This document shows positions 23,043-63,319 of a stretch of 64,000 nucleotides of DNA, one piece after another. Each line of letters begins with the position of its first letter. The first letter of the stretch is position 1. The translations under genes were made by a program, and so were the position numbers. Source of the DNA: a virus; IMG/VR virus record IMGVR_UViG_3300047462_000400, positions 50,870-114,869 of that record. One strand, given 5' to 3'. Under the pieces are notes generated by a model that saw only the letters and a list, made by a program, of their open reading frames with translations, was not told the origin of the DNA and made no database searches.

Positions 23043-25037
23043 TCAGAACGACTCCTGCGCGACGACGTTGCCGCTGTTGAACTGCACGGTGTGCCCGGCC
23101 GTCGTGTTCGTGATCTGAATCGCGTACGCATACGTCCCCGGACCTGGGGTATCGACGAACGGGCCGATGGCGAGCGCGTATTCGGCGGACGTGTCAGTCC
23201 GGAAGGATACGGTGGGACCAATCGGTGAACCATTCTTGAGCAGCGTGGCCTGGACCTGATCGCCCGCAGCCGAGGTGCTGACCGAAGCGTAGCCGCCGAC
23301 CTCGAAGTTGCCCGGTGCGCCAGGCGTCGAGGTGATCGCGGTGAGCGTAAGGGTTGCGGACTGCCCTGTACCGCTCGAGATGCCGCCTTGCTGACGGTTC
23401 GCGAGCACCGTCTGCACGAGCGCAGCGCCCGAGCCGGTGGCCCCGGTGGCGCCCGTCGCCCCACCGGAACCCGTGGGTCCTGTCGTCCCAGTCGGTCCCG
23501 TGGAACCCGTGCTTCCTGTCGGACCGGTAGCTCCAGTCGCCCCCGTGGAGCCGGTGGGTCCGGTGCCGCCCGTGCTCCCGGCTCCCGTGGCTCCTGTCGA
23601 GCCAGTCGGTCCCGTGGCACCGGTCGATCCGGTTGCACCGGTTGCACCAGTGGCTCCGCTCGATGGACGAGCGGCGAGCTCGTCGAGCGCCTGCGCGACC
23701 TGCGTGGGGACCGGAGACCAGTTGCCGGGCGTCTGGGGCGAGTAGGCGAGACCGTTGGCGAGCGTGATGAGGGTGACCGTCGGGTTGCCGGTCAGAGTCT
23801 GGACGAGCGGAAACCCCTCAACGGTAGCCGCGTAGGTAAGGCTGCCGGACGAAGAGAGCGTGAGCGGACCGTCAACCGCGAAGCCGAAGAGGCTCACCGT
23901 GATGCCGCGGACCGTGTTCGTCGCGACGAGCGGGCCGTTGGTGCCGCCGCCGAAGCACGTCAGGATTGCCGGGATGTTCGCGTCTGTCAGCGTGATGGCG
24001 GCGCCGCCCGTGACGTTCGAGTTCTCCGTCTGCCAGTTCGCTCCGTTGATGGTGTACCCGGAGAAGAATTGGCAACCGCGCCCCTGCCCCTGACTGATGA
24101 GGCTGAACCCGACCATCGTGAAGAGCGAGTTGAGGATGCAGTTCTCGAGGTAGAACTTGCCCTCGTTGCTCCCCGTGAAACTCGAGCCCGGCGTCGCACC
24201 GACGTTGAAGTCGATGGTCAGCGCGTTGGTGACGAGGACGTTGATGAGTCCTCCACGCATGTCCGTGAAGTTGTCGTCCGGGTTGTCCGGCGGGTTCCAG
24301 TAGTTGTCGGCGTTGCCCGGATCGGTCCAGAGCGCGAGGGTGCCTGTTAGGCGCGTCGTGAACGGGTCGGTGCCGACGAGGAAGATCCACGGATAAAGAT
24401 TGACGTTCTCTGGATAGATCCCGGGGACCAGGAAGATGCCGTACTTGTTGTTCTTGTTCGGAACACCCTTGGCGAGGAAGGCTGCGTTCGCTGCCGCGAT
24501 GGTGGTGAACGGGGCAGCAATCGAGCCGTCGCCACCGGGAGCTGCAAGCTGATCGACGTAGAGGAGCGATGAGAGGGGCGGAACCGACGGGGTCGCACCC
24601 GTCGCTCCCGTCGAACCGGTAGGCCCGGTCGCTCCAGTTGGTCCCGTGACTCCCGTCGAACCGGTAGGCCCGGTCGCTCCAGTTGGTCCCGTGACTCCCG
24701 TGGAACCGGTGGCTCCGGTTGCTCCAGTGCTGCCAGTGGGTCCGGTAGACCCCGTTGCTCCGGTCGTCCCCGTGGACCCGGTAGAACCCGTGGGGCCGGT
24801 GAAGACAGCTCCCGTCGCACCCACCGGTCCAGTAAGGCCCGTCGCGCCCGTGGAACCCGTGTTGCCGGTAGCGCCGGTGGGACCCGTCCCACCCGTCTGC
24901 CCGGTCGCCCCCGTCGCCCCGGTAGCTCCGGTGGGTCCAGTCGAGCCCGTAGGGCCGGTGACGCCCATCGTGGAAGCCTTCGCCGGCTCCGAATACGTTT
25001 CCGTGGCGTACCGTCCGCGACCGATGATGCGGCTCAT
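23043..25037 (-). CDS. Collagen-like spike candidate with central beta-rich (possibly beta-helical) domain and C-terminal head
   Basis: [15 protein letters not shown]; two G-X-T tracts. Confidence 0.9.
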
Positions 25038-25046
25038 ATTGTTCGC

Positions 25047-25211
25047 TTAGCCCTTCTTCGGTGGGGTTTGGTACATCGCGGTGAGGACGAGAACGAAAAG
25101 GCCAACAACCGGTACGCCGTGCACGACGGGTGACGGGCCGCCTCCGGCCCCCGCGGGCGGAGAGGGATAGGTCTCTCGCGCGTACCGACCGCGACCAACG
25201 ATATGGCTCAT
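25047..25211 (-). CDS. 54-aa protein: docking-type motif plus hydrophobic segment
   Basis: [16 protein letters not shown]...[15 protein letters not shown]...KKG; ATGA coupling. Confidence 0.75.
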
Positions 25212-25621
25212 GCTGATTGCCTCTGCCATTCGACCATCGCGCGAAAGTGGGGGTTAGTGAGACCGTTACGGCGAGTGCGGATGCGGTAGACCGCGTGCGC
25301 TGGCGGCATTCCGAGGTCGACGAGCGCGAGCCCCGCAAGCACGCCGGAACGGTTGCGGCCCTGCCAGCACGTGACGAGCACCCGATGGCCCAACCGCACG
25401 TGGTCAGCGATCTGCCGTGCGGTACGCCGGATGCGCATGCGCGTCAGTTTGTCGGGGGGCGGTCCATCGTCGAGCGGCATCTTGATGACATGGTAGCCGG
25501 GCAGGTCCGGCTGGTACTCCATCGCCGACAGCACGATGACGTCGAACGGCAGGCGCACCCCTTGCGGGGGCGCGCTGCCCTGCGCGAGAAGGCCGTTCGA
25601 GGTTAGGTACGAGTAGCTCAT
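25208..25621 (-). CDS. Dual-specificity/tyrosine phosphatase family protein
   Basis: LDD acid loop and VTCWQGRNRS (CX5R). Confidence 0.88.
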   Translation of the reverse strand: MSYSYLTSNGLLAQGSAPPQGVRLPFDVIVLSAMEYQPDLPGYHVIKMPLDDGPPPDKLTRMRIRRTARQIADHVRLGHRVLVTCWQGRNRSGVLAGLALVDLGMPPAHAVYRIRTRRNGLTNPHFRAMVEWQRQSA

Positions 25622-25866
25622 GATGCGGAAGGGGTGTTGTCGTCGTCGGGTTCCACCGTCTCAACCTCGGCGGCGGCAGTGGCTGCGACGGCAGGCGCCT
25701 TCGACGACGAGAGAATGGAGCCGGTGACGAGGCCGAGCCCCGCCGTCACGACCGACGCGATGAGCGACGGGACGGGGTGCCCGGTGAGGGTGAGCGTGAG
25801 GTCGACGCCGAGCGCAACGACGATGAGCGCGGCGCCGAGCAGCTTGCTATTCACGAGCGCGCTCAT
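25618..25866 (-). CDS. Two-TM membrane protein (holin-like or virion membrane protein)
   Basis: Two hydrophobic helices, acidic tail. Confidence 0.65.
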   Translation of the reverse strand: MSALVNSKLLGAALIVVALGVDLTLTLTGHPVPSLIASVVTAGLGLVTGSILSSSKAPAVAATAAAEVETVEPDDDNTPSAS

Positions 25867-61505: not shown

Positions 61506-61633
61506 CCGACTCGCCTACCGCGACATGAGCTACATGGTCAACCAAGCAGATTACATGCCGCGCCGCGTAGCACCGCGTTCTGTTGATGAGCTGCTAAGCT
61601 TCGCCTCGGTCCACCCGGCGCGCGGTGTAGCAG

Positions 61634-61930
61634 ATGTCGTCAGACGTACCGGTCGCAGACACGTGCGTGTGTGGGGCCACGAACTGGCACAAGCTGGTCG
61701 GCGGGACCGACACCGAACCATCGCGCGTGCTCTGGTGCCGGCGGTGCGGAGCAATCCGGCTCATCTTCGAGGAGCAGTGGCAGATCCCGCTCGACCGAGC
61801 TGGTGACATGCCGCGGTCGCTCCCTCATCCACCGAGCGACGACGAGCGACCTACCGACCCGGGCACGCCGGTGGCGAAGCGCAGCGTGCCCGCGATGCGC
61901 GTGATCACGACGAAGAAGAAAAAGGAATAG
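61634..61930 (+). CDS. Small zinc-ribbon protein with basic tail
   Basis: CVC and CRRC. Confidence 0.65.
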
Positions 61931-61975
61931 CCGCAGGGCCTTCCACCTGGGAGGGGATCGGGATAGCTTGGCTGC

Positions 61976-63319
61976 GTGAGCCACATCGTTGGACGGGGTC
62001 GATACGCTCGCGAGACGTACCCGCGGAGCCCCTCGGTGGGCTCAGGCGGTTCAGGCTCGACCGGACCAACAGGTGCAACAGGCCCCACGGGACCCACGGG
62101 TTCCACCGGAGCGACGGGAAGCGGTAACACCGGTCCCACCGGACCGGGTGGTGGTCCCTCTGGACCCACGGGTGCAACCGGAGCTACCGGGTCGACCGGC
62201 GCGACCGGTGGTGGAACGACAGGTCCCACCGGAGACACCGGAGCAACGGGACCGAGCGGCGGTCCGTCGGGAGCGACCGGCACCACCGGTCCGACAGGGA
62301 GTACCGGCGCGACTGGAGCGACTGGAGCGGGGGCAACAGGAGCTACAGGCGCCACGGGCACTGGCCCCACCGGAGCAACAGGACCCACGGGATCGACGGG
62401 ACCCACGGGAAGTACGGGAGTAACCGGGAGCACCGGCGCGACAGGAGCGACCGGTTCCACCGGACCGACAGGATCGGGTACTCAGCCGACTCCTTTCACG
62501 TTCTTCGCGAGCGGCAGCGTTGTCGTTCCCGCAGGCGTCTCCATGGCGGCCATCCAAGGAACCGGTGGTGGAGGTGGCGGCGGCGGCGGTAGCCAGTTCG
62601 GCGTTGCCGGCGGTCTCGGTGGAGGTGGCGGCGGCGGCGCTGTCTGGACCACGTTATTCGTTGTCGTGGGAGCAGGGCAAACGCTGGACGTCGCCATCGG
62701 TGCGGGCGGTCTGGGCGGTACGGGCGACACGGGTACCGGCGCTGGAGAGGGGAATCCAGGCGGCGACTCGGTCGTGAGCGTCACCGGCACTCCCATCGCC
62801 GTGTTCCTCGGTGCGGGCGGTGGAGCGTGGGGGAACCAGGGGACGCAACCTGGGCCGGGCGGCAGCAACGGCCTCGGTGGTACCCCAGTCCGCAATCCGA
62901 ACACGGGTGGTGCAGGCGCGCAGACATTCACGAACACCCTCAATGGAGAGAGCACCGGTCCAGGCGCGGCGCTGCCTGGAGCTGGCGGTAACTCTATCGA
63001 CGCCGGTGGGGCGTGCACCGGTATGCCGCAAGCCTTCTCGCTGGGGGCTGGACCATTCCCGGGTGGTGGAGGGGGCAGCATCGGTGGACCGCCAGGGACC
63101 TCCGGCTTCGGGGGCGGCGGAGGAGGAGGCGGAACGACCGGCAGCGGCGCCAACGGCGGCAACGGCGGCAACGCGACCGTCGGTCAGACAGGTGGCACCG
63201 CAGCCGCAAACTCGGGTGCGGGCGGTGGTGGCGGCGGCCAGGGTGGCAGCGGTCCTTCCAACGGTGGCGACGGCGGCGACGGCGGCTCGGGCCTCGTGCG
63301 GATCATCTTCTGGCAGTGA
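61976..63319 (+). CDS. Collagen-like spike candidate with C-terminal glycine-rich domain
   Basis: GTG start; [16 protein letters not shown]; [11 protein letters not shown]. Confidence 0.9.

Follow-up and report, generated by a model that had tools for sequence, protein, structure and literature searches.

A short N-terminal peptide shared by unrelated fibre-like proteins of an uncultivated bacterial virus and its relatives: a putative virion-docking tag

Secondary receptor-binding proteins (RBPs) of tailed phages carry conserved N-terminal docking peptides, e.g. those of 7 and 11 residues in phages K1-5, K1E and SP6, and those of the Klebsiella phages KP32, KP34, Menlow and PhiK64-1 (PMC6872550, PMC13352976). 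These peptides are group-specific and bind, in PhiK64-1 on several of its 11 modelled RBPs, the T4gp10-like branching domain of the primary tail fibre (PMC6872550, PMC13352976). A peptide of 15–16 residues (termed the tag) that may have a comparable role is described here. It is present at the N-terminus of ten proteins encoded in a 64,000-nucleotide stretch of DNA (termed the window; positions 50,870 to 114,869 of the IMG/VR virus record IMGVR_UViG_3300047462_000400), which is part of the 116,275-bp genome (67% GC) of an uncultivated bacterial virus. An earlier reading of the window (referred to as the original prediction) had interpreted the tag as a plug-in peptide that docks spikes at the particle vertex.

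As in the K1-5 and KP32 phages, a short N-terminal peptide is found on otherwise unrelated proteins of one virus and is kept in its relatives. In those phages the bodies are beta-helix depolymerases or fibres, which results in a multi-specificity particle, and the peptide differs between groups. In relatives of the present virus the bodies include beta-helix (PF12708/PF13229), PF11999 and PF21722 domains; the virus itself has collagen, and its heads gave no family match. Unlike the phage peptides, the tag occurs in the context of a jelly-roll capsid cassette and its sequence is unrelated to theirs. No tail family, Terminase_6N or other terminase, or HK97 Phage_capsid was recognised in the complete genome, and the structural proteins scanned gave no gp10-like match. 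With neither a tail nor a gp10-like partner recognised, this is not a member of the tailed-phage docking systems.

In HCIV-1 and HHIV-2, spikes of different architecture are held by their terminal strands, which lock onto strands of the penton protein VP9, a “universal adaptor” (PMC6414509). The present virus may resemble these sphaerolipoviruses in that a single jelly-roll penton-like protein (predicted) is encoded beside the capsid genes. Sphaerolipoviruses have ~30-kb genomes with one spike complex per virus and no shared tag on many paralogues, whereas the genomes considered here are 54–125 kb with up to 11 tagged proteins, and the fold match is moderate (Z 7.6).

The adenovirus fibre/penton base and PRD1 P5/P31 systems combine a trimeric shaft and knob with a short N-terminal tail that docks on a pentameric jelly-roll vertex protein; PRD1 P5 contains a collagen-like stretch. 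In the known viruses with such a vertex, the number of fibres is one or two and not eleven. The tag has no sequence similarity to the adenovirus fibre tail motif. In PRD1 the spike and penton proteins share an N-terminus, whereas the tag and the N-terminus of the present penton-like protein are dissimilar.

The BclA-family proteins of the Bacillus exosporium are Gly-X-Thr collagen-like proteins with globular C-terminal heads. They share an N-terminal targeting region, which is cleaved upon attachment, and their genes are near glycosyltransferase and sugar-biosynthesis genes. The virus shows a similar association of Gly-X-Thr collagen (PF01391) with adjacent GT2 and TPR, epimerase/dehydratase and HtrL-like genes. 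The differences are that this is a virus and not a spore, that the targeting motif is unrelated in sequence, and that the tag is also present on non-collagen proteins. A BclA-type spore context is not found, as the genome is that of a virus and none of the cellular genomes searched (185,579 and 301, see below) has the tag.

The tag in the genome and in related viruses

The virus record has an 87-bp terminal overlap, is classed in IMG/VR as having direct terminal repeats and is rated 100% complete by CheckV. Tag sites were checked with a six-frame motif scan and a listing of open reading frames (ORFs), and the ten start sites of the original prediction were all found as described. The canonical tag, MS(H/R)I(V/I)G(R/W)GRYA(R/T/A)ETY, opens seven ORFs in the window, on the minus strand at 25037, 25211, 29155, 31975, 33077 and 57886, and on the plus strand at 61976; the ORFs at 57886 and 61976 have GTG start codons. 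A variant tag, M(S/T)(K/H)IAG(I/L)K..SPE(T/A)Y, opens three more on the minus strand (29921, 30379 and 30876). An eleventh copy, canonical, is outside the window at genome position 2173, minus strand. The 116-kb genome thus has a total of 11 tagged ORFs, which encode otherwise unrelated fibre-like or adhesin-like proteins. All show the same layout: the tag, a Pro/Ser/Gly linker and a variable body.

The original prediction spoke of ten spikes with collagen stalks or none. The ten tagged ORFs are real, although the one at 25211 encodes a mini-protein of 54 aa and three others encode small beta proteins that have no stalk. Tagged genes of the window that have collagen show ~31 to ~155 Gly-X-Thr triplets, and the three variant-tag proteins have none.

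Conservation of the tag at the protein level, as had been proposed, was borne out by a codon comparison of the eight canonical copies. At codons 2–15 there are 191 synonymous and 44 non-synonymous differences in 392 pairwise codon comparisons. Third positions are near saturation; arginine is encoded by CGA, CGC, CGG, AGA and AGG, and glycine by all four of its codons. Sequence identity among the canonical copies collapses past residue 16, and the DNA upstream is unrelated between copies. These properties show that selection is on the peptide and not on the DNA, i.e. the tag peptide is under purifying selection.

A profile of the tag gave 33–49 bits on the 11 copies and 1.6 bits on the next best protein of the genome, which excludes chance as the origin of the shared sequence. 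The non-basic positions I4, G6, Y10, E13, T14, Y15 and P16 are near-invariant across the family.

The tag is not confined to this genome. A degenerate DNA pattern of the tag matched seven IMG/VR contigs and 31 metagenome contigs, and a profile search found 1–5 copies in each of five related virus genomes. All related loci fetched together contain 71 unique tagged ORFs outside the genome, and in every one the tag is at the start codon. The family tag is a 16-residue consensus that is conserved whole. The bodies of 60 complete tagged ORFs from relatives fall into 42 unrelated clusters, and only 14 have collagen. Pfam domains recognised in some of the bodies are the pectate-lyase-like beta-helix (PF12708/PF13229), Ice_binding (PF11999) and Gly_rich_2 (PF21722). 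Beta-helix, ice-binding-like and glycine-rich domains are typical modules of adhesins or depolymerases, and the bodies are hypervariable, as is usual for receptor-binding proteins.

According to the original prediction, the docking interpretation would be refuted if the motif were common in non-viral chromosomes. The DNA pattern had no match in 185,579 prokaryote species genomes, and the profile none in 301 genomes of the phylum of a candidate host. The expected co-occurrence with capsid genes was observed, as all seven IMG/VR contigs with the tag carry the gene for a 427-aa protein of the capsid cassette (see below), and most tag-bearing metagenome contigs longer than ~3 kb carry core genes of the family. 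The tag is thus restricted to one virus group and is family-wide there.

Bodies of the variant-tag proteins are homologous to small proteins of relatives that carry the canonical tag, and an intermediate form, MHLIGRRGYKSEAYP, stands at the orthologous position of a related genome. The variant tag is therefore a diverged copy of the canonical one. A 110-kb relative (G005, positions 75051–76982) has a 77-aa ORF with a perfect tag, which repeats, in truncated form, the N-terminal part of the 453-aa protein next to it; the latter has a degenerate tag, ..AAQTYPQ. This arrangement suggests recombination at the tag and linker. A word-indexed search with region 1–40 of a 137-aa tagged protein yielded two candidates and is uninformative on abundance.

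The capsid cassette and a candidate socket

Gene order around the tagged genes was compared by tblastn. The conserved module has genes for a transglutaminase-like protein, an Arg-rich membrane protein, a trio of proteins of 427, 202 and 282 aa (the capsid cassette), and LysM and PG-binding proteins. It continues with g111, a tagged gene, g108, a tagged gene, g104 and further tagged genes. This conserved synteny confirms that the tagged genes are in the structural module just downstream of the capsid cassette.

The genes of the module described here are on the minus strand. The cassette consists of the 427-aa protein (g117, 39624..40907), which has a basic N-terminal arm and for which a jelly-roll fold is only a lead; the 202-aa protein (g116, 38930..39538), ~72% identical across the family; and the 282-aa protein (g115, 38075..38923), a core gene product of the family and the candidate penton protein and socket. 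The g111 gene (63 aa, 33101..33292) encodes a conserved protein and is always just upstream of the family's first tagged gene. Genes for a conserved membrane protein (g108, 95 aa, 30873..31160) and a conserved basic protein (g104, 74 aa, 29178..29402) are interleaved with the tagged genes. The module also encodes many small membrane proteins. The transglutaminase-like core gene (220 aa, 43695–44357) displays a weak match to this family of Cys-protease fold (E 6e-4, below the Pfam cut-off); the product may serve as a maturation protease or cross-linker.

Homologues of the 427-aa protein were found on 30 viral contigs, with 67–76% identity on 28 of the 30 and ~45% on the other two. The seven IMG/VR contigs with the tag are all among the 30, and those contigs that look near-complete are ~54–125 kb. 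The 282-aa protein has a homologue in 30 of 30 related loci; its family, which is unnamed, is large and diverse (347 representative clusters at 50% identity). A canonical Walker A packaging ATPase was not found in the genome rated complete, where the only P-loop matches are helicases. No description of this virus group was found in the literature.

Homologues of the 427-aa protein are also present on contigs that were binned in metagenome-assembled genomes (MAGs). One, with 77% identity, is in a Candidatus Binatia MAG; another, with 57% identity and the whole cassette, is in a Polyangiaceae MAG. These may represent host clues or binning artefacts.

An AlphaFold2 model of the 282-aa protein, based on an alignment of 103 family sequences, is a confident single jelly roll (predicted local distance difference test (pLDDT) 90; predicted template modelling score 0.86). 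In an exhaustive structural comparison the best match was chain 6h82_b of HHIV-2 (Z 7.6, root-mean-square deviation 4.5 A, 123 of 135 residues aligned). The next match had Z 5.2, and other vertex and turret proteins were lower. The residue range of 6h82_b, 39–173, fits the HHIV-2 penton protein, of which the first 40 residues are disordered in the solved structure (PMC6414509); chain 6h82_b is thus inferred to be the penton protein. Foldseek against the PDB gave no match at E <= 0.001 for the 282-aa model, the weak top rows being jelly-roll capsid proteins of circovirus and birnavirus, and a profile search of PDB sequences with the family alignment gave nothing relevant. The original prediction had taken the 38075–38923 product to be a penton. 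The jelly-roll model, with a sphaerolipovirus penton protein as its best match, supports this assignment but does not prove it.

The 427-aa protein gave a model of low confidence (mean pLDDT 56). Foldseek found no match to it, and VIA-align gave only generic jelly-roll matches with Z 6.4 or less. The sphaerolipovirus type has two vertical single-jelly-roll major capsid proteins; in this regard the weak matches at Z 4.8–5.9 are to SPV1, HCIV-1, VP16/VP17 of P23-77 and PRD1 P3. The N-terminal arm of this protein has SI(I/V)GR in many family members, which resembles HI(I/V)GR of the tag. Kinship between the arm and the tag was rejected as not significant (3.6 bits or less).

A prediction of a complex between two chains of the 282-aa protein and a 36-residue tag region gave a score of 0.00; controls were not run, and the result is evidence neither way.

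Other tags are found in distant lineages that have the same cassette. A distant contig with a penton-like protein of 31% identity keeps the three-gene cassette, and five consecutive genes downstream of it share the N-terminal motif ..(I/V)ADEALYR, behind which come a Gly-rich linker and a variable body. The diverged forms ..AMEAMFRP and ..AEEALARA are found in a relative with 60% identity. In a third lineage another leader, MD(L/Q)G..SPQ.AQNKRTESN.AKALKW, is shared by three genes. The tagged genes with the ADEALYR or MD(L/Q)G motif are located at L107 2688–7964, L113 12211 and 17440, and L108 11644, 14764 and 18437. Distinct shared N-terminal tags in three lineages show that tags on the genes downstream of the cassette are a general habit of the wider group. 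Their sequence differs from one capsid lineage to another, which is the pattern expected of a peptide and socket that co-evolve.

Possible roles of the tag

The tag appears to be a portable N-terminal peptide by which interchangeable host-binding proteins dock onto the virion, a reading that is held here with moderate confidence. The tag would probably enter a single conserved site of the particle in the form of a short strand or hairpin; the best candidate for this site would be the sphaerolipovirus-penton-like jelly-roll protein of 38075–38923. A single socket could serve every protein headed by the tag, and the particle would then display many different host-binding proteins. The body behind the linker can take the form of a collagen triple helix, glycosylatable and with a head, of a beta-helix, or of a small beta domain. 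The flexible linker would take up the symmetry mismatch, and new specificities could arise through fusion of any body behind the tag.

In the phrase “plug-in vertex-docking tag” of the original prediction, the first part has held up: the tag is an N-terminal protein-level module on unrelated fibre-like or adhesin-like bodies and is found family-wide. The vertex is an inference. The penton as the docking site is plausible and is put forward tentatively. Phage docking peptides and the adenovirus fibre tail are established examples of the design; what is new is a variant of it in a new virus group.

Several points weigh against a docking role. The complex prediction gave no verdict on binding of the tag, and the place of the tagged proteins in the particle is conjectural. 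The Z score of 7.6 is below the safe level for a fold match. As to the particle type, the 427-aa protein gave a pLDDT of 56 and weak jelly-roll matches, and no packaging ATPase was recognised. In addition, the (A/S)-x-E at the end of the tag also fits protease-site motifs, and the TPR-bearing glycosyltransferase encoded beside several fibre genes could be the reader of the tag.

The last two points lead to the alternative that the tag is a signal read by an enzyme or assembly factor, i.e. a protease pro-peptide, a chaperone handle, or a peptide bound by the glycosyltransferase's TPR domain. This is considered unlikely. In the protease version, cleavage after the conserved Glu or within IVGR/G would be the candidate event, with the pro-peptide removed at maturation. 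Both tag classes end in (A/S)-x-E-(T/A)-Y, which we take to resemble the prohead protease sites of T4 and phiKZ type, but the whole 16-mer is conserved, beyond a cleavage site, and no prohead protease family of that type is among the proteins scanned. The transglutaminase-like core gene, in spite of its weak match, would provide an enzyme in the structural module; the subtilase of the genome is not conserved in relatives. GT2 and TPR genes adjoin three fibre genes, yet some tagged genomes have no glycosyltransferases and many tagged proteins have no collagen. The cleaved targeting region of the BclA-type spore proteins is a parallel for a signal, and targeting and docking roles are not mutually exclusive.

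The tag may also be an intrinsic oligomerisation arm, or a membrane- or DNA-binding arm, Arg/Gly-rich, that nucleates trimerisation or anchors the fibres in an internal membrane with no protein socket. The tag is indeed basic (GRGRYAR), the 54-aa mini-ORF couples it to a hydrophobic stretch, and the small membrane proteins of the module are in keeping with such an anchor. This explanation is regarded as improbable, more so than the signal, in that the bodies include non-collagen proteins, probably not all trimeric, and 15 residues are too few for a trimerisation domain. The near-invariant non-basic residues point to a specific partner. The basic arm of the 427-aa protein, with its SI(I/V)GR, would be a second instance of such an arm, but its likeness to the tag is below significance. 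Least credible, and hardly to be entertained, is a nucleic-acid element (a translation-initiation or regulatory leader) or recent gene conversion with no functional peptide. The repeat is always at the 5′ end of genes, as a leader would be; its third codon positions, however, are nearly saturated with synonymous differences that leave the peptide unchanged, the DNA upstream shows no relation between copies, and the peptide is also kept in genomes with diverged DNA. Synonymous codon variation effectively refutes the regulatory-leader reading.

Should the tag prove to be a true docking peptide, it would define the set of receptor-binding proteins of a widespread virus family (soil, peat, sediment) that has no cultured member, and a one-line sequence rule would suffice to find each host-recognition gene of these viruses. 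A further use would be as a minimal 16-residue handle for the display of foreign proteins on such particles. The lineage-specific tags, canonical and ..ADEALYR.., would form a clean natural system for peptide-socket co-evolution, and the principle of the conserved docking peptide would extend from tailed phages to apparently large non-tailed jelly-roll viruses.

A broader picture may be drawn, and it is offered as speculation. The viruses may represent a large, undescribed, global group of bacterial viruses (54–125 kb) with sphaerolipovirus-like jelly-roll capsids, in which a lineage-specific tag and a capsid socket (probably the penton) co-evolve as a universal adaptor. Up to 11 fibres would then be displayed, including long glycosylated collagen “hairs” that can be likened to those of giant viruses and spores, and the membrane-anchored tagged mini-protein may cap or tether sockets.

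Individual tagged genes and their neighbours

The tagged genes next to the cassette will be described in the direction of transcription; all are on the minus strand. The gene at 31980..33077 encodes a fibre of 365 aa, in which the canonical tag and a Pro/Gly linker precede ~67 Gly-X-Thr triplets and a beta-rich head of 121 aa. The fibre gene at 31157..31975 (272 aa) has W at position 7 of the tag, ~31 triplets and a 150-aa head; homologues of this head are found in relatives, upstream of the g111 gene. The three small variant-tag proteins without collagen are of 158 aa (30400..30876), 147 aa (29936..30379) and 163 aa (29430..29921). The body of the 158-aa protein is 27% identical to that of a relative's small protein with the canonical tag, and the 163-aa protein is its paralogue (32% identity).

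The gene at 27122..29155 encodes a 677-aa fibre with ~125 triplets in residues 20–403, followed by a glycine-rich C-terminal domain. In the 664-aa fibre (23043..25037) the tag is followed by collagen segments of 41 and then 25 triplets, with a globular domain of 310 aa between them, and by a head of 127 aa. The globular domain gave no Pfam match and only spurious WD40 matches in a PDB search.

Between these two fibre genes is the tagged mini-ORF of 54 aa (25047..25211), in which the tag and a linker lead into a hydrophobic stretch that may be transmembrane. There is a 4-nt overlap with the stop of the phosphatase-like gene upstream. The gene that starts at 33077 encodes the same first 19 residues, with nine codons that differ synonymously. 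The nine synonymous changes with the peptide kept suggest that the mini-ORF is selected and is not a recent remnant. Relatives also have short tagged ORFs, of 28–77 aa.

Two tagged genes, both with GTG start codons, are located farther away. One (56243..57886, minus strand) encodes a 547-aa fibre with ~114 triplets and a 170-aa head; the other (61976..63319, plus strand) encodes a 447-aa fibre with collagen to about residue 168 and, like the 677-aa protein, terminates in a glycine-rich domain. The eleventh tagged gene (genome positions 115545–2173, minus strand, outside the window) encodes 938 aa with ~252 Gly-X-Y triplets. It spans the 87-bp terminal overlap and thus runs over the junction of the contig, which was assembled as a circle. 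The flanking genes encode a GT2 and TPR protein, an HtrL-like/methyltransferase protein, an NAD-dependent epimerase/dehydratase and a subtilase.

The heads are beta-rich, 120–170 aa long and mutually unrelated, with two weak paralogue pairs detected. Pfam Collagen (PF01391) is significant in five tagged proteins of the genome. The heads of the tagged proteins of this genome gave no Pfam or PHROGs family, the only matches being to “tail fiber” PHROGs and driven by collagen.

A GT2 glycosyltransferase gene with a TPR region (26108..27118, minus strand) is directly downstream of the gene for the 677-aa collagen fibre. GT2 and TPR genes adjoin three fibre genes in all, and paralogues of the 26108..27118 product are encoded beside the eleventh; epimerase/dehydratase and HtrL-like genes also adjoin fibre genes. 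The presence of glycosylation-type genes beside the fibre genes suggests that the Thr-rich stalks are glycosylated, and the 26108..27118 product probably glycosylates the Gly-X-Thr stalks.

Three accessory genes located amid the fibre genes are conserved, all on the minus strand: a dual-specificity-phosphatase-like gene (25208–25621), an SGNH/GDSL esterase-like gene (60307–60912) and an Rv2525c-like glycoside-hydrolase-like gene (63321–63998).

A second recurrent N-terminal module was observed on four minus-strand proteins, at 20915–23011, 33296–35509, 35296–35790 and 44354–45154. These have a LysM-like start, M.Y.V..GDSP..IA... Several of them end in membrane anchors or Arg-rich tails, and a protein with a PG_binding_1 domain is encoded adjacent.

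Elsewhere there are genes for a pentapeptide-repeat protein (4472–5299, plus strand), an IS1595-family transposase (6400–7434, plus strand) and a tyrosine integrase (16530–17729).

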